Shown here: piece after piece, positions 4,561-34,109 of the stretch | Layout of the letters: each line of letters opens with the position of its first letter | Position numbering within the stretch: position 1 is the stretch's first letter | Translations under genes and position numbers: made by a program | Assembly: GCF_056712565.1 (NCBI RefSeq) | Contig: NZ_CM160072.1 | Reading direction: 5' to 3' (one strand) | DNA: 64,000 nt | Notes under the pieces: generated by a model | The model's database searches: none | The model's input: only the letters and a program-made list of their open reading frames with translations | Told to the model about the DNA's origin: nothing

Positions 4561-5426
4561 CGACGGATCGGAATCAGCAGTTCACAGCGCAGATTAATTG
4601 GGCGATCTCCCGCTTTGGCATCTTCTGCCGGGTAGTATCGCTCAATATCCTGACCTTTACGGCGCGTCAAGTTAAGCATTGGCATGCACGTTCCGTATAC
4701 CGTCAGGATAAACTCCTGCACGCCGGTTCCCAGACCTTCATAGGTAAACATCACATATTCGCCGCCCTGCAACATCACCGGATGCCCAGTCAGTACATAG
4801 CCATCTGCCTGATCCTGAGCTAACGCGGTGGTGTAGAACACCTCTTGTTCGTCGTCTTTATCCTGGCTCGGACGTGTTTCGTTCAAACCGTAAAGCACTG
4901 GTGGAATGGTTGGCGAGTTGCCGAGAAAATCGTGCCAGAACTGGTAGCGCATTTCATGGCGGAAATCAGAGATTTGCTCCAGCGAACAGGAGTAGCTCTG
5001 GGTAACACCAATCAGCGGCGTATCTTCCAGGGTGACAAATTTGTGCTCTGGCATAGTGAATTCACCCAGACGCAGCGGCGGGCGAATACCAAAGGCGCTC
5101 CATTCAGGAGAACGGCGGTAAAGTGCAGGAGTCTGGGCAAACTGCTTCTTGAAAGCGCGGGTAAATGTCTGTTGAGAGTCGAAGCGGTATTGCAGCGCGA
5201 TGTCCAGAATCGGACGCGCAGTCAGGCGTAGTGCGACCGCCGATTTCGACAAACGACGAGCACGAATATACGCGCCAATAGCATGGCCAGTGACATCTTT
5301 AAACATTCTCTGTAAGTGCCACTTGGAATAACCTGCTTTCGCCGCTACATTGTCGAGCGACAGGGGATGATCCAGATGACCTTCCAGCCAGATTAAAAGG
5401 TCGCGAATAATGCCGGCCTGATCCAT
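4557..5426 (-). CDS. rob: Right-origin-binding protein Rob (AraC/XylS family regulator)
   Basis: 289-aa ORF MDQAGIIRDLLIWLEGHLD... with N-terminal AraC-type HTH; matches Rob. Confidence 0.95.
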   Translation of the reverse strand: MDQAGIIRDLLIWLEGHLDHPLSLDNVAAKAGYSKWHLQRMFKDVTGHAIGAYIRARRLSKSAVALRLTARPILDIALQYRFDSQQTFTRAFKKQFAQTPALYRRSPEWSAFGIRPPLRLGEFTMPEHKFVTLEDTPLIGVTQSYSCSLEQISDFRHEMRYQFWHDFLGNSPTIPPVLYGLNETRPSQDKDDEQEVFYTTALAQDQADGYVLTGHPVMLQGGEYVMFTYEGLGTGVQEFILTVYGTCMPMLNLTRRKGQDIERYYPAEDAKAGDRPINLRCELLIPIRR

Positions 5427-6812: not shown

Positions 6813-8236
6813 TGCGTATCGGCATGCGGTTGTTGCTGGGCTATTTTTTACTGGTGGCGGTGGCGGCCTGGTTCGTACTGGCTATTTTTGTCAAAGAAGT
6901 TAAACCGGGCGTGCGAAGAGCAACCGAGGGGACGTTAATCGACACCGCAACGTTGCTGGCGGAGCTGGCGCGTCCCGATTTGCTCTCTGGGGACCCAACG
7001 CATGGGCAACTGGCGCAGGCGTTTAATCAGCTACAACATCGCCCGTTTCGCGCCAATATCGGTGGCATTAACAAAGTGCGCAACGAATATCATGTCTATA
7101 TGACCGATGCGCAGGGCAAAGTATTGTTCGATTCGGCAAATAAAGCCGTTGGACAGGATTATTCGCGCTGGAATGACGTCTGGCTAACGTTGCGTGGTCA
7201 GTATGGTGCGCGCAGCACGTTGCAAAATCCTGCCGATCCCGAAAGTTCTGTGATGTATGTTGCCGCGCCGATTATGGACGGCTCGCGGCTTATTGGCGTT
7301 TTGAGCGTAGGCAAACCGAACGCGGCGATGGCTCCGGTCATTAAGCGTAGCGAGCGGCGAATTTTATGGGCCAGCGCCATTTTGTTGGGGATTGCACTGG
7401 TGATTGGCGCAGGCATGGTTTGGTGGATCAACCGCTCTATTGCCAGGCTCACTCGCTATGCTGATTCCGTCACTGACAATAAGCCCGTTCCTCTCCCCGA
7501 TCTCGGTAGTAGCGAGTTGCGTAAACTCGCGCAGGCGCTGGAAAGTATGCGCGTGAAGCTGGAAGGGAAAAACTATATTGAGCAGTATGTTTATGCGTTA
7601 ACTCATGAGCTAAAAAGCCCACTGGCGGCGATTCGTGGCGCGGCGGAAATTTTACGCGAAGGTCCGCCGCCGGAAGTGGTGGCTCGTTTTACCGACAACA
7701 TTCTGACGCAAAATGCGCGAATGCAGGCACTGGTGGAAACGTTACTACGCCAGGCAAGACTGGAGAATCGTCAGGAAGTCGTTCTGACTGCTGTTGATGT
7801 GGCGGCATTATTTCGCCGCGTCAGCGAAGCGCGCACCGTGCAGTTGGCAGAAAAAAACATCACTTTGCATGTTATGCCTACTGAGGTTAACGTTGCTTCT
7901 GAACCGGCGTTACTGGAGCAGGCGCTGGGGAATTTACTGGATAACGCCATCGATTTTACTCCCGAGAGCGGTTGCATAACGCTAAGCGCCGAAGTGGATC
8001 AGGAATACGTCACCCTTAAGGTGCTGGATACCGGTAGTGGGATTCCTGACTACGCGCTGTCACGTATTTTTGAACGCTTTTACTCTTTGCCGCGTGCAAA
8101 TGGGCAAAAAAGCAGCGGTCTGGGGTTGGCGTTTGTCAGTGAGGTCGCCCGTTTGTTTAACGGCGAAGTCACGCTGCGCAACGTGCAGGAAGGTGGCGTG
8201 CTGGCCTCGCTTCGACTTCACCGTCACTTCACATAG
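6812..8236 (+). CDS. creC: Sensor histidine kinase CreC
   Basis: 474-aa ORF with two TM segments, H-box (LTHELKSPLAAIRG) and ATPase motifs (DNAIDF, DTGSGIP, GLGLAFV); start overlaps creB stop. Confidence 0.95.
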   Translation: MRIGMRLLLGYFLLVAVAAWFVLAIFVKEVKPGVRRATEGTLIDTATLLAELARPDLLSGDPTHGQLAQAFNQLQHRPFRANIGGINKVRNEYHVYMTDAQGKVLFDSANKAVGQDYSRWNDVWLTLRGQYGARSTLQNPADPESSVMYVAAPIMDGSRLIGVLSVGKPNAAMAPVIKRSERRILWASAILLGIALVIGAGMVWWINRSIARLTRYADSVTDNKPVPLPDLGSSELRKLAQALESMRVKLEGKNYIEQYVYALTHELKSPLAAIRGAAEILREGPPPEVVARFTDNILTQNARMQALVETLLRQARLENRQEVVLTAVDVAALFRRVSEARTVQLAEKNITLHVMPTEVNVASEPALLEQALGNLLDNAIDFTPESGCITLSAEVDQEYVTLKVLDTGSGIPDYALSRIFERFYSLPRANGQKSSGLGLAFVSEVARLFNGEVTLRNVQEGGVLASLRLHRHFT

Positions 8237-9705: not shown

Positions 9706-10422
9706 TTAATCTTCCAGATCACCGCAGAAGCGATAACCTTCACCGTGAATGGTGGCGATGATTTCCGGCGTATCCGGCGTAGATTCGAAATGTTTACGAA
9801 TACGGCGGATCGTCACATCTACAGTACGGTCGTGCGGTTTCAGCTCACGGCCGGTCATTTTCTTCAGCAGTTCAGCACGGGACTGAATTTTGCCTGGGTT
9901 TTCACAGAAGTGAAGCATGGCGCGGAACTCGCTGCGCGGCAGCTTGTACTGCTCGCCATCAGGGCCGATCAACGAACGGCTGTTGATGTCCAGTTCCCAA
10001 CCATTGAACTTGTAGCTTTCAACGCTACGACGTTCTTCGCTGACAGTACCCAGATTCATGGTACGGGACAGCAGGTTGCGTGCACGAATAGTCAGTTCAC
10101 GCGGGTTGAACGGTTTGGTGATGTAGTCATCTGCACCGATTTCGAGGCCGAGAATTTTATCGACTTCGTTGTCACGGCCAGTCAGGAACATCAACGCAAC
10201 ATTCGCCTGCTCGCGCAGTTCACGCGCTAACAGAAGACCGTTCTTACCCGGCAGATTGATATCCATGATCACCAGGTTGATGTCATATTCAGAGAGGATC
10301 TGATGCATTTCCGCGCCATCTGTCGCTTCGAAAACATCATAGCCTTCCGCTTCGAAAATACTTTTCAACGTGTTGCGTGTTACCAACTCGTCTTCAACGA
10401 TAAGAATGTGCGGGGTCTGCAT
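9706..10422 (-). CDS. arcA: Aerobic respiration control response regulator ArcA
   Basis: 238-aa [33 protein letters not shown]..., OmpR-family receiver plus winged helix; matches ArcA. Confidence 0.97.
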
Positions 10423-10517
10423 GTTTGCTACCTAAATTGCCAACTAAATCGAAACAGGAAGTACAAAAGTCCCTGACCTGCCTGATGCATGCTGCAAATT
10501 AACATGATCGGCGTAAC

Positions 10518-10658
10518 ATGACTAAAGTACGTAATTGCGTTCTTGATGCACTTTCCATCAACGTCAACAACATCATTAGCTTGGTCGTGGGTACTTTCCC
10601 TCAGGACCCGACAGTGTCAAAAACGGCTGTCATCCTAACCATTTTAACAGCAATATAA
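10518..10658 (+). CDS. yjjY: Small protein YjjY (46 aa)
   Basis: ATG at 10518 opens a 46-codon frame MTKVRNCVLDALSINVNNIISLVVGTFPQDPTVSKTAVILTILTAI, at the expected position between arcA and lasT; below the ORF-track length cutoff. Confidence 0.55.
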   Translation: MTKVRNCVLDALSINVNNIISLVVGTFPQDPTVSKTAVILTILTAI

Positions 10659-11057
10659 CAGGCTAAGAGGGGCAGGACACCCAATAAAACTACGCTTCGT
10701 TGACATATATCAAGTTCAATTGTAGCACGTTAACAGTTTGATGAAATGATCGTATCTAAATGCTAGCTTTCGTCACATTATTTTAATAATCCAACTAGTT
10801 GCTTCATACAACTAATAAACGTGGTGAATCCAATTATCGAGATTTATTTTTTATAAAATTATCCTAAGTAAACAGAAGGATATGTAGCATTTTTTAACAA
10901 TTCAATCGTTAGTACAGTCAGGAAATAGTTTAGCTTTTTTTAAGCTAAGCAAAGGGCTTTTCCTGCGACTTACGTTAAGAATTTGTAAATTCGCAACGCG
11001 TAATAAGTTGACAATGATCACCCTGTTCGCGGTTATTTGGTCAAGAAGAGTGGCAAT

Positions 11058-11744
11058 ATGCGTATAACGATTATTCTGGTTGCACCCGCCAGAGCAGAAA
11101 ATATTGGGGCAGCGGCGCGGGCAATGAAAACGATGGGTTTTAGCGAACTGCGGATTGTTGATAGTCAGGCACACTTGGAGCCAGTCGCCCGTTGGGTCGC
11201 ACATGGATCTGGTGATATTATTGATAATATTAAAGTTTTCAAGACACTAGCTGAATCGTTACACGATGTCGATTTCACTGTTGCCACCACTGCGCGCAGT
11301 CGGGCGAAATATCATTACTACGCTACGCCAGTAGAACTGGTGCCGCTGTTAGAGGAAAAATCTTCATGGATGAGCCATGCCGCTCTGGTGTTTGGTCGCG
11401 AAGATTCCGGGCTGACTAACGAAGAGTTAGCGTTGGCTGACGTTCTTACTGGTGTGCCGATGGTGGCGGATTATCCTTCGCTCAATCTGGGGCAGGCAGT
11501 GATGGTCTATTGCTATCAATTAGCAACATTAATACAACAACCGGCGAAAAGTGACACAACGGCAGACCAACATCAACTGCAAGCTTTACGCGAACGAGCC
11601 ATGACATTGCTGACGACTCTGGCAGTGGCAGATGACATAAAACTGGTCGACTGGTTACAACAACGCCTGGGGCTTTTAGAGCAACGAGACACGGCAATGT
11701 TGCACCGTTTGCTGCATGATATTGAAAAAAATATCACCAAATAA
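11058..11744 (+). CDS. lasT: tRNA/rRNA methyltransferase LasT (SpoU/TrmH family)
   Basis: ORF MRITIILVAPARAENIGAAARAMKTMGF... matches LasT/YjtD; start set at the internal Met rather than the ORF-track start. Confidence 0.85.
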   Translation: MRITIILVAPARAENIGAAARAMKTMGFSELRIVDSQAHLEPVARWVAHGSGDIIDNIKVFKTLAESLHDVDFTVATTARSRAKYHYYATPVELVPLLEEKSSWMSHAALVFGREDSGLTNEELALADVLTGVPMVADYPSLNLGQAVMVYCYQLATLIQQPAKSDTTADQHQLQALRERAMTLLTTLAVADDIKLVDWLQQRLGLLEQRDTAMLHRLLHDIEKNITK

Positions 11745-11878
11745 AAAACGCCTTAGTAAGTGATTTTCAGCTTTTCATTCTGACTGCAACGGGCAATATG
11801 TCTCTGTGTGGATTAAAAAAAGAGTGTCTGATAGCAGCTTCTGAACTGGTTACCTGCCGTGAGTAAATTAAAATTTTA

Positions 11879-11916
11879 TTGACTTAGGTCACTAAATACT
11901 TTAACCAATATAGGCA
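11879..11916 (+). promoter_or_regulatory. thr operon promoter region (approximate -35 TTGACT through transcription start)
   Basis: TTGACT hexamer at 11879-11884 followed by an AT-rich -10 region about 40 bp upstream of thrL; placement by the known thr leader architecture. Confidence 0.45.
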
Positions 11917-11954
11917 TAGCGCACAGACAGATAAAAATTACAGAGTACACAACA

Positions 11955-12023
<69 letters not shown>

Positions 12024-12043
12024 CGCGTACAGGAAACACAGAA

Positions 12044-12078
12044 AAAAGCCCGCACCTGACAGTGCGGGCTTTTTTTTC
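12044..12078 (+). terminator. thr attenuator (rho-independent terminator)
   Basis: AAAGCCCGCAC-ctgaca-GTGCGGGCTTTTTTTT hairpin plus U-run between thrL and thrA. Confidence 0.88.
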
Positions 12079-12103
12079 GACCAAAGGTAACGAGGTAACA
12101 ACC

Positions 12104-14566
12104 ATGCGAGTGTTGAAGTTCGGCGGTACATCAGTGGCAAATGCAGAACGTTTTCTGCGGGTTGCCGATATTCTGGAAAGCAATGCCAGGCAGGGGCAGG
12201 TGGCGACCGTCCTCTCTGCCCCCGCCAAAATTACCAACCATCTGGTAGCGATGATTGAAAAAACCATTAGCGGCCAAGATGCTTTACCCAATATCAGCGA
12301 TGCCGAACGTATTTTTGCCGAACTTCTGACGGGACTCGCCGCCGCCCAGCCGGGATTTCCGCTGGCACAATTGAAAACTTTCGTCGACCAGGAATTTGCC
12401 CAAATAAAACATGTCCTGCATGGCATTAGTTTGTTGGGGCAGTGCCCGGATAGCATCAACGCTGCGCTGATTTGCCGTGGCGAGAAAATGTCGATCGCCA
12501 TTATGGCCGGCGTGTTAGAAGCGCGTGGTCACAACGTTACCGTTATCGATCCGGTCGAAAAACTGCTTGCAGTGGGGCATTACCTCGAATCTACCGTTGA
12601 TATTGCTGAGTCCACCCGCCGTATTGCGGCAAGCCGCATTCCGGCTGACCACATGGTGCTGATGGCTGGTTTCACTGCCGGTAATGAAAAAGGCGAGCTG
12701 GTGGTTCTGGGACGCAACGGTTCCGACTACTCCGCTGCGGTGCTGGCGGCCTGTTTACGCGCCGATTGTTGCGAGATCTGGACGGATGTTGACGGTGTTT
12801 ATACCTGCGATCCGCGTCAGGTGCCCGATGCGAGGTTGTTGAAGTCGATGTCCTATCAGGAAGCGATGGAGCTTTCTTACTTCGGCGCTAAAGTTCTTCA
12901 CCCCCGCACCATCACCCCCATCGCCCAGTTTCAGATCCCTTGCCTGATTAAAAATACCGGAAATCCTCAAGCTCCAGGTACGCTCATTGGTGCCAGCCGT
13001 GATGAAGACGAATTACCGGTCAAGGGCATTTCCAATCTGAATAACATGGCAATGTTCAGCGTTTCCGGCCCGGGGATGAAAGGGATGGTTGGCATGGCGG
13101 CGCGCGTCTTTGCAGCGATGTCACGCGCCCGTATTTCCGTGGTGCTGATTACGCAATCATCTTCCGAATACAGTATCAGTTTCTGCGTTCCGCAAAGCGA
13201 CTGTGTGCGAGCTGAACGGGCAATGCAGGAAGAGTTCTACCTGGAACTGAAAGAAGGCTTACTGGAGCCGTTGGCGGTGACGGAACGGCTGGCCATTATC
13301 TCGGTGGTAGGTGATGGTATGCGCACCTTACGTGGGATCTCGGCGAAATTCTTTGCCGCGCTGGCCCGCGCCAATATCAACATTGTCGCCATTGCTCAGG
13401 GATCTTCTGAACGCTCAATCTCTGTCGTGGTCAATAACGATGATGCGACCACTGGCGTGCGCGTTACTCATCAGATGCTGTTCAATACCGATCAGGTTAT
13501 CGAAGTGTTTGTGATTGGCGTCGGTGGCGTTGGCGGTGCGCTGCTGGAGCAACTGAAGCGTCAGCAAAGCTGGTTGAAGAATAAACATATCGACTTACGT
13601 GTCTGCGGTGTTGCTAACTCGAAGGCACTGCTCACCAATGTACATGGCCTTAATCTGGAAAACTGGCAGGAAGAACTGGCGCAAGCCAAAGAGCCGTTTA
13701 ATCTCGGGCGCTTAATTCGCCTCGTGAAAGAATATCATCTGCTGAACCCGGTCATTGTTGACTGTACTTCCAGCCAGGCAGTGGCGGATCAATATGCCGA
13801 CTTCCTGCGCGAAGGTTTCCACGTTGTTACGCCGAACAAAAAGGCCAACACCTCGTCGATGGATTACTACCATCAGTTGCGTTATGCGGCGGAAAAATCG
13901 CGGCGTAAATTCCTCTATGACACCAACGTTGGGGCTGGATTACCGGTTATCGAGAACCTGCAAAATCTGCTCAATGCTGGTGATGAATTGATGAAGTTCT
14001 CCGGCATTCTTTCAGGTTCGCTTTCTTATATCTTCGGCAAGTTAGACGAAGGCATGAGTTTCTCCGAGGCGACCACACTGGCGCGGGAAATGGGTTATAC
14101 CGAACCGGACCCGCGAGATGATCTTTCTGGTATGGATGTGGCGCGTAAGCTATTGATTCTCGCTCGTGAAACGGGACGTGAACTGGAGCTGGCGGATATT
14201 GAAATTGAACCTGTGCTGCCCGCAGAGTTTAACGCCGAGGGTGATGTCGCCGCTTTTATGGCGAATCTGTCACAGCTCGACGATCTCTTTGCCGCGCGTG
14301 TGGCGAAGGCCCGTGATGAAGGAAAAGTTTTGCGCTATGTTGGCAATATTGATGAAGATGGCGTCTGCCGCGTGAAGATTGCCGAAGTGGATGGTAATGA
14401 TCCGCTGTTCAAAGTGAAAAATGGCGAAAACGCCCTGGCCTTCTATAGCCACTATTATCAGCCGCTGCCGTTGGTACTGCGCGGATATGGTGCGGGCAAT
14501 GACGTTACAGCTGCCGGTGTCTTTGCTGATCTGCTACGTACCCTCTCATGGAAGTTAGGAGTCTGA
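12104..14566 (+). CDS. thrA: Bifunctional aspartokinase I / homoserine dehydrogenase I
   Basis: 820-aa protein [26 protein letters not shown]...; ORF-track start at 12062 lies inside the attenuator hairpin, so the ATG at 12104 was used. Confidence 0.97.
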
Positions 14567-14567
14567 C

Positions 14568-15500
14568 ATGGTTAAAGTTTATGCCCCGGCTTCCAGTGCC
14601 AATATGAGCGTCGGGTTTGATGTGCTCGGGGCGGCGGTGACACCTGTTGATGGTGCATTGCTCGGAGATGTAGTCACGGTTGAGGCGGCAGAGACATTCA
14701 GTCTCAACAACCTCGGACGCTTTGCCGATAAGCTGCCGTCAGAGCCACGGGAAAATATCGTTTATCAGTGCTGGGAGCGTTTTTGCCAGGAGCTTGGCAA
14801 GCAAATTCCAGTGGCGATGACTCTGGAAAAGAATATGCCGATCGGTTCGGGCTTAGGCTCCAGCGCCTGTTCAGTGGTCGCGGCGCTGATGGCGATGAAT
14901 GAACACTGCGGCAAGCCGCTTAATGACACTCGTTTGCTGGCTTTGATGGGCGAGTTGGAAGGGCGTATCTCCGGCAGCATTCATTACGACAACGTGGCAC
15001 CGTGTTTTCTTGGTGGTATGCAGTTGATGATTGAAGAAAACGACATCATCAGTCAGCAAGTGCCAGGGTTTGATGAGTGGCTGTGGGTGCTGGCGTATCC
15101 GGGGATTAAAGTCTCGACGGCAGAAGCCAGGGCTATTTTACCGGCGCAGTATCGCCGCCAGGATTGCATTGCGCACGGGCGACATCTGGCAGGCTTCATT
15201 CACGCCTGCTATTCCCGTCAGCCTGAGCTTGCCGCGAAGCTGATGAAAGATGTTATCGCTGAACCCTACCGTGAACGGTTACTGCCAGGCTTCCGGCAGG
15301 CGCGGCAGGCGGTTGCGGAAATCGGCGCGGTAGCGAGCGGTATCTCCGGCTCCGGCCCGACTTTGTTCGCTCTGTGTGACAAGCCGGATACCGCCCAGCG
15401 CGTTGCCGACTGGTTGGGTAAAAACTACCTGCAAAATCAGGAAGGTTTTGTTCATATTTGCCGGCTGGATACGGCGGGCGCACGAGTACTGGAAAACTAA
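14568..15500 (+). CDS. thrB: Homoserine kinase
   Basis: 310-aa [27 protein letters not shown]... with GHMP kinase motif [10 protein letters not shown]. Confidence 0.97.
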
Positions 15501-27221: not shown

Positions 27222-27374
27222 TTACTCGGATTCGTAAGCCGTGAAAACAGCAACCTCCGTCTGGCCAGTTCGGATGTGAACCTCACAGAGGTCTTTTCTC
27301 GTTACCAGCGCCGCCACTACGGCGGTGATACAGATGACGATCAGGGCGACAATCATCGCCTTATGCTGCTTCAT
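27222..27374 (-). CDS. hokC: Type I toxin HokC (Hok/Gef family membrane toxin)
   Basis: 50-codon frame MKQHKAMIVALIVICITAVVAALVTRKDLCEVHIRTGQTEVAVFTAYESE inside the 80-aa ORF. Confidence 0.88.
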   Translation of the reverse strand: MKQHKAMIVALIVICITAVVAALVTRKDLCEVHIRTGQTEVAVFTAYESE

Positions 27375-27431
27375 TGCTCTCTTCTCCTTGACCTTACGGT
27401 CAGTAAGAGGCACTCTACATGTGTTCTGCAT
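27222..27431 (-). CDS. mokC: MokC, overlapping reading frame that modulates hokC translation
   Basis: Same frame as hokC starting at the upstream Met (MQNTCRVPLTDRKVKEKRA...), as in characterised hok/mok loci. Confidence 0.6.
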   Translation of the reverse strand: MQNTCRVPLTDRKVKEKRAMKQHKAMIVALIVICITAVVAALVTRKDLCEVHIRTGQTEVAVFTAYESE

Positions 27432-27477
27432 ATAGGGGGCCTCGGGTTGATGGTAAAATATCACTCGGGGCTTTTCT
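27423..27477 (+). ncRNA. sokC: Putative SokC antisense RNA (approximate position)
   Basis: Placed only by analogy to hok/sok loci, where Sok is antisense to the mok start region; no promoter or terminator was convincingly identified in the sequence. Confidence 0.3.
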
Positions 27478-27985
27478 CTATCTGCCGTTCAGCTAATGCC
27501 TGAGACAGACAGCCTCAAGCACCCGCCGCTATTATATCGCTCTCTTTAACCCATTCTGTTTTATCGATTCTAATCCTGAAGACGCCTCGCATTTTTGCGT
27601 AATCAATCTTTAGTACATTGTTTATTTTAACTCTTATGTGCGTTTTCATTTACAAAAGTTGAGATTATGAACAAGAGGTTTAAGTTATGCCTGAATGGTG
27701 AGTTATTACTGGAGAAAGTAATAGAAGATACAAAATATTCTTGTACAGAATTGAATTTTCTTTTTGTGAGGAAAAATGTTTATAAATCAATGAGTGATAT
27801 TTAAAATCGACACACTTTTTGAAACACGATACCTCCACACCCGGGGGTAAAAGTAATCTGCGATCTCCATCACGCTTTGCCATTCACCTTTAAATATACT
27901 TTCTGAGTCGTTCTTAATCAAAATGAATTATCTGATGTATTGATTTCTATGGAACCATAAAAAAAATGAATGGAGAGCATATTAT

Positions 27986-28747
27986 ATGTCTGCCAAAAGA
28001 CGGCTTCTTATTGCGTGTGCCCTGACAACGATTTTCTATCACCTTCCTGCATATTCTTCATTAGAATATAAAGGTTCCTTTGGCTCAATAAATGCAGGTT
28101 ATGCTGACTGGAATAGTGGCTTCATTAACACTCATCGTGGTGAAGTATGGAAAGTGACTGCAGACTTTGGTGTGAATTTTAAAGAAGCCGAGTTTTACTC
28201 ATTTTATGAAAGCAATGTGCTTAACCATGCCGTAGCGGGGCGTAATCATACCGTTTCTGCTATGACACATGTCAGACTCTTTGACTCCAATATGACTTTC
28301 TTTGGCAAGATCTATGGTCAATGGGATAACTCATGGGGTGACGATCTTGATATGTTTTATGGTTTGGGCTACCTCGGCTGGAATGGTTCATGGGGGTTTT
28401 TTAAACCGTATATTGGATTACATAATCAATCTGGAGACTACGTCTCAGCCAAATATGGACAAACAAATGGCTGGAATGGTTATGTTGTTGGCTGGACAGC
28501 AGTATTACCTTTTACGTTATTTGACGAAAAATTTGTTTTATCTAACTGGAATGAAATAGAACTGGACAGAAATGATGCCTATGCGGAACAACAATTTGGT
28601 CGGAATGGGCTAAATGGCGGTTTAACAGTAGCCTGGAAGTTCTATCCTCGCTGGAAAGCCAGTGTGACGTGGCGTTATTTCGATAATAAGTTGGGCTACG
28701 ATGGTTTTGGCGATCAAATGATTTATATGCTTGGTTATGATTTCTAA
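27986..28747 (+). CDS. Tsx-family outer-membrane beta-barrel channel (nucleoside-specific-channel-like porin)
   Basis: 253-aa ORF with signal peptide, Trp/Tyr/Gly-rich composition, and C-terminus ...MLGYDF ending in Phe; local similarity to Tsx (LEYxxF near N-terminus, GYxF C-terminus). Good SD (GGAGAG) upstream. Confidence 0.7.
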   Translation: MSAKRRLLIACALTTIFYHLPAYSSLEYKGSFGSINAGYADWNSGFINTHRGEVWKVTADFGVNFKEAEFYSFYESNVLNHAVAGRNHTVSAMTHVRLFDSNMTFFGKIYGQWDNSWGDDLDMFYGLGYLGWNGSWGFFKPYIGLHNQSGDYVSAKYGQTNGWNGYVVGWTAVLPFTLFDEKFVLSNWNEIELDRNDAYAEQQFGRNGLNGGLTVAWKFYPRWKASVTWRYFDNKLGYDGFGDQMIYMLGYDF

Positions 28748-28766: not shown

Positions 28767-30260
28767 ATGCAGAAAACATTAATGGCCAGTTTGATCGGCC
28801 TTGCAGTTTGCACAGGGAATGCTTTTAATCCAGTCGTAGCTGCCGAGACTAAACAACCCAATTTAGTCATCATTATGGCGGATGATTTAGGCTATGGTGA
28901 TTTAGCAACATATGGACATCAGATCGTTAAAACACCCAATATTGACAGGCTTGCCCAGGAGGGCGTCAAATTTACTGACTACTATGCACCAGCTCCCTTA
29001 AGTTCTCCTTCGCGGGCGGGGTTATTAACGGGGCGGATGCCATTTCGTACCGGCATACGTTCATGGATCCCAACGGGAAAAGATGTGGCATTAGGGCGTA
29101 ATGAACTCACGATTGCTAATCTACTCAAAGCGCAAGGGTATGACACGGCCATGATGGGTAAGCTGCATCTGAATGCAGGCGGCGATCGCACCGATCAGCC
29201 GCAGGCAAAAGATATGGGCTTTGATTACTCACTGGTTAATACGGCGGGTTTTGTTACCGACGCCACGCTGGATAACGCTAAAGAACGCCCGCGTTATGGC
29301 ATGGTTTACCCGACAGGCTGGCTACGTAACGGGCAACCCACTCCACGAGCCGATAAAATGAGCGGTGAGTATGTCAGTTCGGAAGTCGTCAACTGGCTGG
29401 ATAACAAAAAGGACAGCAAGCCTTTCTTCCTCTATGTTGCTTTTACCGAAGTGCATAGCCCCCTGGCTTCGCCCAAAAAATACCTCGACATGTACTCACA
29501 ATATATGAGCGCGTATCAGAAGCAGCATCCTGATTTATTTTATGGCGACTGGGCAGACAAACCCTGGCGTGGTGTGGGGGAATATTATGCCAATATCAGC
29601 TATCTGGATGCACAGGTTGGAAAAGTGCTGGATAAAATCAAAGCGATGGGTGAAGAAGATAACACAATCGTTATTTTTACCAGTGATAACGGTCCGGTAA
29701 CGCGTGAAGCGCGCAAAGTGTATGAGCTGAATTTGGCAGGGGAAACGGATGGATTACGCGGTCGCAAGGATAACCTTTGGGAAGGCGGAATTCGTGTTCC
29801 AGCCATTATTAAATATGGTAAACATCTACCACAGGGAATGGTTTCAGATACACCCGTTTATGGTCTGGACTGGATGCCTACTTTAGCGAAAATGATGAAC
29901 TTCAAATTACCTACAGACCGTACTTTCGATGGTGAATCGCTGGTTCCTGTTCTTGAGCAAAAAGCATTGAAACGCGAAAAGCCATTAATTTTCGGGATTG
30001 ATATGCCATTCCAGGATGATCCAACCGATGAATGGGCGATCCGTGATGGTGACTGGAAGATGATTATCGATCGCAATAATAAACCGAAATATCTCTACAA
30101 TCTGAAATCTGATCGTTATGAAACACTTAATCTGATCGGTAAAAAACCAGATATTGAAAAACAGATGTATGGTAAGTTTTTAAAATATAAAACTGATATT
30201 GATAATGATTCTCTAATGAAAGCCAGAGGTGATAAACCAGAAGCGGTGACCTGGGGCTAA
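28767..30260 (+). CDS. Periplasmic sulfatase, Ser-type (formylglycine precursor is Ser)
   Basis: 497-aa protein with signal peptide (MQKTLMASLIGLAVCTG...), metal-binding IIMADDLGYGDL, and sulfatase signature PLSSPSRAGLLTG (S-x-P-x-R). Start set at the internal ATG with SD, 19 bp after the porin stop. Confidence 0.85.
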   Translation: MQKTLMASLIGLAVCTGNAFNPVVAAETKQPNLVIIMADDLGYGDLATYGHQIVKTPNIDRLAQEGVKFTDYYAPAPLSSPSRAGLLTGRMPFRTGIRSWIPTGKDVALGRNELTIANLLKAQGYDTAMMGKLHLNAGGDRTDQPQAKDMGFDYSLVNTAGFVTDATLDNAKERPRYGMVYPTGWLRNGQPTPRADKMSGEYVSSEVVNWLDNKKDSKPFFLYVAFTEVHSPLASPKKYLDMYSQYMSAYQKQHPDLFYGDWADKPWRGVGEYYANISYLDAQVGKVLDKIKAMGEEDNTIVIFTSDNGPVTREARKVYELNLAGETDGLRGRKDNLWEGGIRVPAIIKYGKHLPQGMVSDTPVYGLDWMPTLAKMMNFKLPTDRTFDGESLVPVLEQKALKREKPLIFGIDMPFQDDPTDEWAIRDGDWKMIIDRNNKPKYLYNLKSDRYETLNLIGKKPDIEKQMYGKFLKYKTDIDNDSLMKARGDKPEAVTWG

Positions 30261-30308
30261 CCTGATAATCATAATAAATGTAATGTATGCCATTTAGGGC
30301 TATGCCCG

Positions 30309-30345
30309 CCTGATTCAGTGCTACGCATTGAATCAGGTTCTTTTC
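30309..30345 (+). terminator. Rho-independent terminator after the porin-sulfatase pair
   Basis: CCTGATTCA-gtgctacgcat-TGAATCAGG perfect 9-bp stem followed by TTCTTTTCG. Confidence 0.65.
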
Positions 30346-30382
30346 GCGTTGAACAATATCAAGATACGGCTATTCGCAGGGA

Positions 30383-31648
30383 GTGGATATGTTTACCAAC
30401 GTAAATGTTGATTGTTGCAAAACACCAGGATGTAAAAACCTGGGGTTGCTGAATAGCCAGGATTATGTCGCACAGGGTAAAAATATTTTATGCCGTGAAT
30501 GTGGTTACTTGTTTCCAGTGATATCTGAACAGTCGCTTAATATTTATCGTAATATTGTGAATCACTCCTGGAGAGGTTTGATTTGCCAATGTTCAACTTG
30601 CGGAGGCACGTCCCTCAAAAAATATGGATATTCTGCACAAGGCCAGAGAAGAATGTATTGCCATCATTGTGAGAAAACATTTATCACTCTGGAACATGTA
30701 ATTACCACACCACGAGGAGCCCTGTTAGCATTGATGATTGAGCAAGGGGAGGCACTTGCGGATATCAGAAAGTCATTACTTCTTAACAGCACTGGACTTA
30801 GCCGTGAACTGTTAAAATTAGCGCGTGAAGCAAACTATAAAGAAAGTCGACAGTGTTTCCCAGCTTCTGATATTACCCTGAGTACCCGCGCTTTTCGCGT
30901 CAAGTATAATGGTAGCAATAACTCTCTTTATGCTCTTGTTACCGCAGAAGAACAAAGCGGCAGGGTGGTTGCCATCTCAACCAATTACTCCCCATCTGCC
31001 GTAGAGCAACATTATCAATACACATCGAACTATGAAGAGCGTATGTCTCCAGGGACGCTGGCACATCATGTCCAGCGCAAAGAGTTACTTACTATGCGGC
31101 GGGATACCTTGTTTGATATTGATTACGGCCCGGCAGTTTTACATCAAAACGATCCGGGAATGTTGGTAAAACCGGTTCTTCCGGCATATCGTCATTTTGA
31201 ACTGGTCAGAATACTGACCGATGAGCATTCCAACAACGTTCAGCATTACCTTGATCACGAATGCTTTATATTGGGCGGCTGCCTGATGGCTAATTTGCAG
31301 CATATTCATCAAGGTCGCTGCCATATTTCCTTTGTCAAAGAGCGCGGTGTGGCACCCGCCACCATTGATTTTCCACCGCGATTATTCCTTAGTGGTGGGG
31401 TACGAAATAATGTCTGGCGTGCATTTTCTAACCGCAATTATTCAATGGCTGTATGCAATCTCACTGGCAGTAAGAAAGTCCGCGAGATGCGGCATGCAAC
31501 ATTGAACAGTGCGACGCGTTTTATCCACTTTGTGGAGAACCATCCTTTCCTTATATCATTGAACCGAATGTCTCCTGCGAATGTCGTTTCTACATTAGAT
31601 ATCCTCAAACATCTGTGGAATAAAAAACTAGAGCATGGAACAATTTAA
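30383..31648 (+). CDS. Uncharacterised protein with two N-terminal InsA-like Cys4 zinc ribbons
   Basis: 421-aa ORF with SD (GGGAG); two C-x(n)-C...C-x2-C motifs (CCKTPGC...CRECG and CQCSTCG...CHHCEKTF) resembling the IS1 InsA zinc ribbon; remainder not recognised. Confidence 0.6.
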   Translation: MDMFTNVNVDCCKTPGCKNLGLLNSQDYVAQGKNILCRECGYLFPVISEQSLNIYRNIVNHSWRGLICQCSTCGGTSLKKYGYSAQGQRRMYCHHCEKTFITLEHVITTPRGALLALMIEQGEALADIRKSLLLNSTGLSRELLKLAREANYKESRQCFPASDITLSTRAFRVKYNGSNNSLYALVTAEEQSGRVVAISTNYSPSAVEQHYQYTSNYEERMSPGTLAHHVQRKELLTMRRDTLFDIDYGPAVLHQNDPGMLVKPVLPAYRHFELVRILTDEHSNNVQHYLDHECFILGGCLMANLQHIHQGRCHISFVKERGVAPATIDFPPRLFLSGGVRNNVWRAFSNRNYSMAVCNLTGSKKVREMRHATLNSATRFIHFVENHPFLISLNRMSPANVVSTLDILKHLWNKKLEHGTI

Positions 31649-31882
31649 TTATTACTTTTCCGAATAATTTCTTCAGAAATCTTGACATTAGACTATGATT
31701 AATGGGGTTTAAGGTCATCAGCCGCCGCTTTCGGGCATCAAAAACTCATCTCTCGCTGATGGCGCAATTCTTTTAATAGATCGTAAAAAGCGAGCTATTC
31801 CTACACTATAATCTGATTTTAACGATGATTCGTGCGGGGTAAAATCGTGAAAACGATCTATTCACCTGAAGAGAAATAAAAA

Positions 31883-33049
31883 GTGAAACATCTGCATCGA
31901 TTCTTTAGCAGTGATGCCTCGGGAGGCATTATTCTCATTATTGCCGCTGTATTAGCGATGATTATGGCCAACAGCGGTGCAACCAGTGGATGGTATCACG
32001 ACTTTCTTGAGACGCCGGTTCAGCTCCGGGTTGGGACACTTGAGATCAACAAGAACATGCTGCTATGGATCAATGACGCTCTGATGGCGGTATTTTTCCT
32101 GTTGGTTGGTCTGGAAGTTAAACGCGAGCTGATGCAAGGTTCGCTGGCCAGTCTGCGCCAGGCGGCATTTCCTGTTATTGCCGCAATCGGCGGGATGATT
32201 GTCCCGGCATTGCTCTATCTGGCTTTTAACTATGCCGATCCGATTACCCGCGAAGGCTGGGCAATCCCGGCGGCGACTGACATTGCCTTTGCACTTGGTG
32301 TGTTGGCGCTGTTGGGAAGTCGTGTTCCGTTAGCGCTGAAGATCTTTTTGATGGCTCTGGCTATTATCGACGATCTTGGGGCCATCATTATCATCGCATT
32401 GTTCTACACTAATGACTTATCGATGGCCTCTCTTGGCGTCGCGGCTGTAGCAATTGCGGTACTCGTGGTATTGAATCTGTGTGGTGTACGCCGCACGGGC
32501 GTTTATATTCTGGTTGGCGTGGTGCTGTGGACAGCGGTGTTGAAATCGGGGGTTCACGCAACCCTGGCTGGCGTCATTGTCGGCTTCTTTATTCCTTTGA
32601 AAGAGAAGCATGGGCGCTCTCCGGCTAAACGTCTGGAGCATGTTTTGCATCCATGGGTGGCGTATCTGATTTTGCCGCTGTTTGCATTTGCTAATGCTGG
32701 CGTTTCACTGCAAGGTGTCACGCTGGAAGGTTTGACCTCCATCCTGCCATTAGGGATCATCGCTGGTTTGCTGATTGGCAAGCCACTGGGTATTAGTCTG
32801 TTCTGCTGGTTGGCGCTGCGTTTGAAATTGGCACATCTGCCAGAGGGAACGACTTACCAGCAAATTATGGCGGTTGGTATCCTGTGCGGTATCGGTTTTA
32901 CTATGTCTATCTTTATTGCCAGCCTGGCATTTGGTAGCGTAGATCCAGAACTGATTAACTGGGCAAAATTAGGTATCCTTGTCGGTTCAATTTCTTCGGC
33001 GGTAATTGGATATAGCTGGTTACGCGTTCGTTTACGTCCATCAGTTTGA
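31883..33049 (+). CDS. nhaA: Na+/H+ antiporter NhaA
   Basis: 388-aa ORF with GTG start ([22 protein letters not shown]...); matches NhaA. Confidence 0.96.
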
Positions 33050-33108: not shown

Positions 33109-34014
33109 ATGAGCATGTCTCATATCAATTACAACCACTTGTATTACTTCTGGCATGTCTACAAAGAAGGTTCTGTGGTTGGCGCAGCGGAGGCGCTTTA
33201 TTTAACACCACAAACCATTACCGGGCAGATCCGGGCGCTGGAAGAGCGCCTGCAAGGGAAACTATTTAAGCGTAAAGGACGTGGTCTGGAACCCAGCGAA
33301 CTGGGGGAACTGGTCTATCGCTATGCCGATAAAATGTTCACCTTAAGCCAGGAAATGCTGGATATCGTCAACTATCGCAAAGAGTCCAACTTATTGTTTG
33401 ATGTTGGTGTGGCAGATGCACTTTCCAAACGTCTGGTCAGCAGTGTTCTGGATGCCGCAGTTGTGGAAGACGAGCAGATCCATCTACGCTGTTTCGAATC
33501 GACGCACGAGATGCTTTTAGAGCAGTTGAGTCAGCATAAACTGGATATGATCATCTCTGACTGTCCGATCGATTCCACTCAGCAGGAAGGGCTGTTTTCC
33601 ATGAAAATTGGCGAATGTGGTGTCAGTTTCTGGTGCACTAACCCACTACCAGAAAAGCCGTTTCCTGCCTGTCTTGAAGAGCGTCGTTTACTTATTCCGG
33701 GGCGTCGCTCAATGTTGGGGCGTAAGCTATTAAACTGGTTTAACTCCCAGGGCTTGAACGTCGAAATTTTGGGTGAGTTTGATGATGCTGCGTTGATGAA
33801 AGCCTTTGGGGCGACGCATAACGCTATTTTCGTTGCACCTTCGCTTTACGCTAATGATTTCTATAACGATGACTCGGTTGTGGAGATAGGCCGTGTTGAG
33901 AACGTGATGGAAGAGTACCACGCGATTTTTGCCGAAAGGATGATTCAGCACCCTGCAGTACAGCGTATCTGCAATACAGACTATTCTGCGCTGTTTACTC
34001 CAGCTTCAAAATAA
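33109..34014 (+). CDS. nhaR: LysR-family transcriptional activator NhaR
   Basis: 301-aa protein [40 protein letters not shown]...; start set at the internal Met. Confidence 0.95.
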
Positions 34015-34061
34015 ACATTTGTACTTTGCAGGCCGAATTTTGGCCTGCAGATGGATATAAA

Positions 34062-34089
34062 AAAACCCGCCAGAGCGGGTTTTTTTACA
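34062..34089. terminator. Bidirectional terminator between convergent nhaR and rpsT
   Basis: AAAAAAACCCGC-cag-AGCGGGTTTTTTT symmetric hairpin with A-run and T-run flanks. Confidence 0.75.
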
Positions 34090-34109
34090 AAGCTGACAAC
34101 AACAGGCAA

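Follow-up and report, generated by a model that had tools for sequence, protein, structure and literature searches.

Why is a gene that resembles part of a transposase kept beside a sulfatase gene on the chromosome of Escherichia coli? The gene in question is an open reading frame (ORF) at positions 30383-31648 on the plus strand of a 64,000-nucleotide stretch of DNA, here called the window (NCBI RefSeq assembly GCF_056712565.1, contig NZ_CM160072.1). Over this gene, the window is 100% identical to E. coli ATCC 11775 (phylogroup B2). A preliminary description, made from the letters of the window without database searches, regarded the product as an orphan with two InsA-like zinc ribbons and about 300 unrecognized residues. 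It proposed either a domesticated regulator of the adjacent porin-sulfatase operon or the remnant of a decayed element. It appears, with a probability of roughly 0.55, that the gene encodes a transposase-derived transcription factor for the cluster, which includes genes for a Tsx-like channel and a Ser-type sulfatase. Domestication of a transposase is well supported. We infer that the protein binds DNA at a conserved promoter element and regulates the cluster in co-operation with CRP.

The reading frame was confirmed to be uninterrupted. It was listed from a GTG at 30383, which gives a form of 421 amino acids (aa). Translation probably begins at the ATG at 30389 instead, for a protein of 419 aa. 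This start is likely because an AGGGAG Shine-Dalgarno sequence lies 5 nt upstream, 42 of 42 orthologs begin with MF, and the same start was chosen by PGAP. Residues are numbered on the 419-aa form unless marked as 421-aa.

Zinc Ribbons and Helix-Turn-Helix

There are two cysteine clusters in the N-terminal half, as the preliminary description stated, and each holds five Cys in E. coli. The ortholog alignment identifies C12/C17/C37/C40 and C70/C73/C93/C96 as the invariant ligands (421-aa numbering). C11 and C68, which had been named as ligands, are both variable in the orthologs. The Cys of the first ribbon are at least 90% conserved in an alignment of 47 family members, and beta-hairpins were modeled there by AlphaFold2 (AF2). 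No profile model matches this ribbon, and the likeness to InsA holds for the second ribbon only. The second ribbon scores 28.0 bits against NCBIfam IS1_IS1595_Zn, equal to the cut-off of 28, and Pfam Zn_ribbon_InsA was matched in 7 of 47 relatives. Zinc-ribbon matches were all that Pfam scans of the protein and these relatives returned, and PHROGs gave only a zinc-ribbon "transposase" family.

When the family profile was aligned to IS1 InsAB' with hhalign, a match of 96.4% probability (E 1e-9) was obtained between residues 65-148 and InsA positions 5-91 only. These residues span the whole InsA module, the zinc ribbon together with the helix-turn-helix (HTH). A local IS1 hidden Markov model (HMM) gave the same boundaries, at IS1 positions 3-92. 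The HTH is InsA-type and GerE-like, and it occupies approximately residues 108-153 of what had been the unrecognized part. The protein itself scores 19.5 bits against NCBIfam transpos_IS1 (cut-off 100), and distant relatives match the NCBIfam IS1 transposase model from position 1 to 130-140 of 199. The protein is considered to be of transposase origin because the InsAB' profile match covers ribbon and HTH and because its distant relatives match the IS1 transposase model.

Fold and Catalytic Positions of the C-Terminal Domain

The rest of the supposedly unrecognized part, residues ~158-419, is modeled as an RNase H-like domain of the DDE-transposase fold. With close orthologs alone, AF2 gave a poor model (pLDDT 57.8), which was discarded. 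After 29 distant relatives from an exhaustive search of representatives had been added, the pLDDT was 92.1 and the pTM 0.92. The order of the core in this model is canonical: beta1 (161-172), beta2 (179-187), beta3 (193-198), alpha1 (224-237), beta4 (258-260), alpha2 (263-278), beta5 (283-288), and alpha3 (292-307). It is followed by a beta insertion (311-357) and a helical C-terminus (364-415). The core matches known transposases and integrases in fold.

The structure search that had been suggested for this domain did find a fold, and the profile searches did not find a Pfam DDE family. DDE_Tnp_IS1 (PF03400) is absent from the protein and from all 47 relatives, and a PDB sequence search with the family profile returned insignificant matches only. 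Compared with IS1 InsB, the domain gave 0.3% in hhalign and no signal in hmmsearch, a weak negative in view of the low diversity of the IS1 alignment.

Residues were assigned to catalytic positions by secondary-structure topology rather than by 3-D superposition. E291, which starts the helix after beta5, is the only universally acidic column of the C-terminal domain in the 47-sequence alignment. No Asp on beta1 is conserved family-wide; D161 is invariant within the Enterobacteriaceae clade only. The position after beta4, where DDE enzymes carry their second catalytic Asp, is K261, followed by the invariant P262. The residues conserved instead are G191, N199, Y211, R238, Y246, P262, H269, F270, H286, H290, E291, W343, and N411. 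Given this residue mapping, and since neither transposon ends nor any mobility was found, the simplest interpretation is a loss of transposition chemistry and a pocket put to new use.

Conservation, Copy Number, and Selection

The gene does not behave as an orphan. A close search returned 58 homolog clusters and a wider one 96 representatives. Full-length homologs with 55-85% identity are found in E. albertii, Salmonella, Citrobacter, Klebsiella, and Kluyvera. Among complete E. coli genomes, 1275 of 5426 carry the gene, as a single copy and always on the chromosome (0 on plasmids). The E. coli genomes with the porin and sulfatase genes number 1273 and are essentially those that carry the gene. 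In a sample of 60 E. coli copies, taken at intervals down the ranking, 59 are annotated as intact coding sequences (CDSs) and one is a frameshifted pseudogene. The gene is thus full length in nearly all sampled carriers, and neither a pseudogene in most strains nor a decaying remnant was found.

A scan of one genome per species gave 17 loci, one per genome; the close-ortholog alignment was used, which under-samples distant relatives. In the 16 Enterobacteriaceae loci, the gene lies between the sulfatase gene and nhaA, and the sulfatase gene adjoins in all 15 whose contig reaches that far. The genera with this locus are Escherichia, Salmonella, Citrobacter, Klebsiella, Phytobacter, Kluyvera, Kosakonia, and UBA3516. 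A gene for a radical-SAM/SPASM anaerobic sulfatase-maturating enzyme (anSME) stands between the sulfatase gene and the gene in 10 of the 16, among them loci of Salmonella, Citrobacter, Kosakonia, and Phytobacter. Where it is retained, the gene starts 12-35 nt after it and is presumably co-transcribed with it. The local anSME gene has been lost and the gene kept in Escherichia, some Klebsiella species, and Phytobacter massiliensis. After this loss, the Escherichia spacer between the sulfatase gene and the gene is 128 nt and contains a terminator-like hairpin. Essentially all sampled extra-intestinal pathogenic E. coli of group B2 (UTI89, ST131) have the cluster, as does Salmonella.

The dN/dS ratio (Nei-Gojobori) is 0.10 against a second E. 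coli allele and 0.08 against E. albertii, and dS is saturated between genera. The protein appears to be inactive as an element because it is encoded by a single copy without inverted repeats, at one site in at least seven genera, with dN/dS of 0.08-0.10 and without a conserved catalytic Asp. No companion transposase was found around the gene, as the preliminary description had also noted. No inverted repeats bracket it; the best pairs (14-24 nt, 71-93% complementarity) are scattered. The sequence comparisons indicate that the gene belongs to the host, is inherited vertically, and is kept by purifying selection; it is not an insertion sequence, whether live or decaying. In databases, it is annotated as "hypothetical", "cytoplasmic protein", "IS1 family transposase", or "transposase". 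The labels "IS1 family transposase" and "hypothetical protein" are misleading.

There are also differences among E. coli alleles. Against the second allele (TUM9757; window 29000-33000), identity is ~99% over dnaK/dnaJ, 76-86% across the gene, and 92-95% at nhaA. The dS between the two alleles of the gene is 0.91, a magnitude seen between species. The B2 allele is 96% identical to that of E. whittamii. The islet is a mosaic, in which the porin/sulfatase allele of the window is at least 99% identical in 124 genomes and the allele of the gene in 1044. These patterns look like old recombination imports centered on the gene. In E. coli 24A16CRGN010 (locus positions 7007-7983), the source of the single pseudogene in the sample, the gene is frameshifted and partly deleted, and the porin and sulfatase genes are annotated as intact.

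Genomic Neighborhood

The gene is the last of a three-gene islet (channel, sulfatase, and the gene itself) with the order dnaK-dnaJ-mokC/hokC, islet, nhaA-nhaR-rpsT-ribF-ileS. The G+C content of the islet is 34-47%, compared with ~51% in the flanks. Within the sulfatase cluster, the protein is the sole DNA-binding candidate encoded.

More distant relatives can also indicate what the family is associated with. Those at 34%, 32%, 28%, and 26% identity adjoin an anSME gene, and a Ser-type sulfatase gene as well wherever the contig extends. One of the sulfatase-linked distant relatives also has a Tsx-like channel. Where its flanks are visible, this group occupies chromosomal sites other than the one at nhaA. 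Relatives of a second group, with 23-27% identity, have no sulfatase nearby and are divergent from nucleoside-scavenging genes. The divergent partners are a deoB-like mutase, a nucleoside phosphorylase, and a nucleoside:H+ symporter in one relative, a NupC-type transporter and a phosphorylase in another, and a periplasmic 5'-nucleotidase in three, one of them from a Proteus genome. A TGTGA-N6-TCACA box with at most one mismatch is present in four of five divergent intergenic regions, compared with 0.045 expected from shuffles.

The HTH and the linkage to a putative target operon, in some cases divergent, are two traits of a one-component transcription factor. A dedicated regulator is proposed because the HTH gene has been kept beside or divergent from catabolic operons with CRP boxes, a classic signature.

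In the AlphaFold database (AFDB), full-length structural relatives occur across Enterobacterales and Vibrionales, where the family may number hundreds of members, and relatives of ~600 aa occur in Geobacter, Thiocapsa, and Paraburkholderia. Four proteins of ~570-630 aa, E8WS89, E8WJC5, A0A1H3BKZ2, and A0AAP5BKH7, share the whole fold (query TM-score 0.68-0.70) at 16-18% identity. Some relatives of this size are annotated as "insertion element protein", and from the structural comparison this group could be still-mobile kin of the family.

Promoter Region and Candidate Operator

Promoter regions were aligned in groups of like gene arrangement, which worked better than k-mer sharing across promoter regions; the latter was uninformative. 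The cross-genus alignments contain a CRP-like box as a conserved block (Table 1), which in Kosakonia and Phytobacter reads TGTGATATCTCTATCACA. In E. coli, a -10-like TATACT (27895-27900) follows 20 nt downstream of the box. The box is predicted to be centered at about -40.5 from the start site implied by TATACT, the geometry of a class II activator.

A 16-bp element, CAACAT-N4-TGACAY, lies farther upstream, at a distance of 48-49 bp from this box. Exact copies were found in Salmonella, Citrobacter, Klebsiella, Kosakonia, Phytobacter, and UBA3516, in promoter regions only; they are the only matches within loci of ~8.6-17 kb. Loci whose channel and sulfatase genes diverge have a pair of copies in inverted orientation (locus L004, minus strand 4726-4741 and plus strand 4892-4907). 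Each member of the Salmonella pair has its own CRP-like box at identical spacing. The element is predicted to be the operator of the protein, and a diverged counterpart is present in E. coli.

Table 1. Positions of the gene, its domains, and associated features; positions are those of the window unless a locus is named.
Feature	Position	Strand	Description
CDS, transposase-derived protein	30389..31648	+	419 aa; listed ORF begins at GTG 30383
Zinc ribbon 1	30416..30502	+	Residues 10-38; ligands C10, C15, C35, C38
InsA-homologous module	30581..30832	+	Residues 65-148; zinc ribbon 2 (C68, C71, C91, C94) and helix-turn-helix
RNase H-like (DDE-transposase-fold) domain, modeled	30860..31645	+	Residues ~158-419; by topology, no conserved catalytic triad
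Terminator-like hairpin	30308..30338	+	14-bp stem followed by TCTTTTCGCG; in the spacer from sulfatase gene to CDS
Ser-type sulfatase	28767..30260	+	Motif SSPSR; conserved upstream neighbor of the CDS
Tsx/OmpK-family outer-membrane channel	27986..28747	+	First islet gene; Salmonella homolog has Pfam Channel_Tsx
CRP-like box TGCGATCTCCATCACG	27859..27874	+	Conserved block in cross-genus promoter alignments
Diverged E. coli counterpart of the element, TCGACACACTTTTTGAAACACGA	27807..27829	+	Candidate operator, ~48 bp upstream of the CRP-like box
Near-consensus CRP boxes	L013 4082-4097; L014 1259-1274; L031 6915-6930; L034 5923-5938		Divergent intergenic regions of distant relatives

Other Features of the Locus

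Directly upstream of the islet is a hokC/mokC type I toxin gene (27222-27464, minus strand). The 80-aa ORF at this position has the Hok sequence MKQHKAMIVALIVICITAVVAALVTRKDLCEVHIRTGQTEVAVFTAYESE at its end and is named mokC by PGAP.

The sulfatase cluster is larger in some relatives. In Salmonella (L004, 404-11091) and two Citrobacter species, an extra 5'-nucleotidase of periplasmic type lies by an inverted Tsx-like channel gene. These clusters are flanked by a pair of paralogous arylsulfotransferases that share 59-63% identity. The Klebsiella spallanzanii locus (L023) has gained the 5'-nucleotidase and inverted channel genes and no more. Channel, nucleotidase, and sulfatase together would suit a sulfated nucleotide or nucleoside as substrate, which is speculation. 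In E. coli, the Ser-type sulfatase would presumably need an unlinked anSME, aslB or ydeM, for maturation, because it is Ser-type (SSPSR) and Escherichia has no local anSME. It would be matured in this way or else be inactive.

Downstream of nhaR, the window (33380-34100) lacks a block of genes that is inserted in other E. coli lineages. In TUM9757, the block (10672-14651) contains a fimbrial gene, a partial usher pseudogene, and espX1. In 24A16CRGN010 (10404-14328), it contains a fimbrial gene, a partial usher pseudogene, a chaperone pseudogene, and IS1B. Identity falls sharply from the 3' end of nhaR onward.

Proposed Mechanism and Alternative Explanations

The ancestor of the protein was most likely a zinc-ribbon DDE transposase, and its descendant has become domesticated and non-mobile. 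DNA would be bound by a head made of the two Cys4 zinc ribbons and the InsA-type HTH. The RNase H-like domain, once catalytic, appears to have lost the two catalytic aspartates and has conserved Arg, Pro, His, His, His, Glu, and Trp residues; it may now serve in oligomerization or effector sensing. The protein would bind the upstream element ~48 bp from the CRP-like box in its class II placement. The controlled cluster would consist of the channel and sulfatase genes, to which other genera add anSME, 5'-nucleotidase, or arylsulfotransferase genes. Of the domesticated regulator that had been suggested earlier, the domestication is borne out by homology, fold, synteny, and selection, and the regulatory part is what we infer.

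Several points weigh against a transcription factor. Neither experiment nor publication was found in support of a regulatory role. A promoter of its own was sought for the E. coli gene and none was clear; a terminator-like hairpin precedes the gene, and its expression is a prediction. The element is degenerate in E. coli, where 27807-27829 does not match it within two mismatches, and its assignment as operator is circumstantial. The TGnGA-N6-TCAC box may be a plain CRP site that acts without the protein. When the model was searched against the PDB with Foldseek, the matches were weaker, and Argonaute PIWI domains ranked about equal to transposases, together with ISCth4; this ranking is consistent with a generic RNase H-like core. 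Finally, the catalytic positions rest on topology, and some residual chemistry may persist, given the conserved E291 and the D161 that is invariant in the Enterobacteriaceae clade.

A persistent chemistry would be the basis of one alternative, in which the domain is still enzymatic, with His/His/His/Glu in place of Asp/Asp/Glu, and acts as a site-specific nuclease, recombinase, or RNA-processing factor on the locus or its transcript. Besides D161 and a position 291 that is acidic in 100% of the family, H269 is invariant, H286 and H290 are 87-89% conserved and near E291 in sequence, and the fold matches nucleases (transposases, integrases, PIWI domains, and EndoV). Such a remodeled enzyme is nevertheless unlikely. 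No acidic residue is present family-wide on beta1 or after beta4, where Lys-Pro is found instead, and there are no repeats or invertible segment nearby. The gene order of the locus is stable over genera, and no defense-system model in PADLOC matches the protein.

A protein partner instead of DNA is also conceivable. The product could assist the radical-SAM anSME, as an accessory or chaperone, in maturing the unfolded sulfatase. The spacing of 12-35 nt after the anSME gene in most genera looks like translational coupling, and distant relatives also abut an anSME gene. However, the gene is kept where the local anSME gene has been lost, the members at 23-27% identity sit by nucleoside genes, and the N-terminal half is homologous to the DNA-binding InsA, with a GerE-like HTH. 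A maturation role is therefore judged quite improbable. A further alternative is that the protein is the transposase of an insertion sequence, either live or only recently decayed, and resembles the product of a host gene by coincidence; the RefSeq labels sometimes say as much, and the N-terminal part is homologous to InsA. This is effectively refuted by a single, chromosome-only copy at one orthologous site across at least seven genera, without flanking inverted repeats, with dN/dS of ~0.1 while dS is saturated between genera, without conserved catalytic Asp residues, and without a Pfam DDE match. Both the active insertion sequence and the decayed element were rejected on copy number, synteny, dN/dS, and the absence of inverted repeats.

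Comparison with Known Systems

The second Cys4 ribbon and the HTH are homologous to the whole of IS1 InsA, which is a DNA-binding repressor. Unlike InsA, the protein has an extra N-terminal zinc ribbon. Unlike IS1, it is encoded by a single ORF without a programmed frameshift, and its C-terminal domain is ~260 aa, compared with ~140 aa for InsB, with no detectable sequence similarity between them. It also differs from IS1 in being single copy and immobile, with no inverted repeats and no conserved catalytic Asp. Full-length homology to an active transposase with inverted repeats was thus not found; the similarity is limited to the InsA module.

Among proteins related by fold, ISCth4 (IS256/Mutator family, PDB 6xg8) and the Tn5 transposase (PDB 1mm8) have only 9-11% sequence identity to the protein. 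In comparison with these, its NCBIfam scores are below the cut-off (23.7 bits vs 27), its DDE triad is, by topology, not conserved, and it has no transposon ends.

Transposase-derived transcription factors are known, such as the plant FHY3/FAR1 from Mutator-like elements and the bacterial TldR repressors from TnpB. In principle, the protein would resemble them in having kept a DNA-binding module, lost catalysis, become fixed at one host locus, and come to regulate host genes. It differs from them in its lineage, an IS1/IS256-like zinc-ribbon DDE enzyme, and in its gamma-proteobacterial host. A transposase-derived DNA-binding protein is of a known kind that is unusual for bacteria.

CytR-type, CRP-dependent control is exerted on the nucleoside genes tsx, deo, nupG, and nupC of E. 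coli. The family offers a functional analogy to this system in its gene neighbors, namely Tsx-like channels, transporters and phosphorylases for nucleosides, deoB, and 5'-nucleotidases, and in the CRP-like boxes of the control regions. Unlike CytR, the protein has no LacI-family domain and is unrelated to it.

Significance

No paper on the gene or its family turned up when the literature was searched with locus tags, accessions, and keywords. A described bacterial DDE-transposase-derived regulator of this family was likewise not found in the searchable literature. DDE transposases that became host regulators are well documented for eukaryotes and, to our knowledge, hardly for bacteria.

A broader proposal can be put forward tentatively. 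The protein may represent an undescribed gamma-proteobacterial family of DDE-transposase-derived factors with a His/Glu effector or metal pocket. Together with CRP, such factors could co-activate operons for scavenging of sulfate esters and nucleosides, one of which may possibly serve for sulfated host compounds in E. coli of the gut and urinary tract. The family is inherited vertically across Enterobacteriaceae, and its relatives in Vibrionales and Proteus adjoin nucleoside-catabolism genes. If the protein is a transposase-derived transcription factor, it would provide a clean, genetically tractable bacterial case of the domestication of a DDE transposase. It would also assign a regulator to the sulfatase cluster of B2 extra-intestinal pathogenic E. 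coli and Salmonella.

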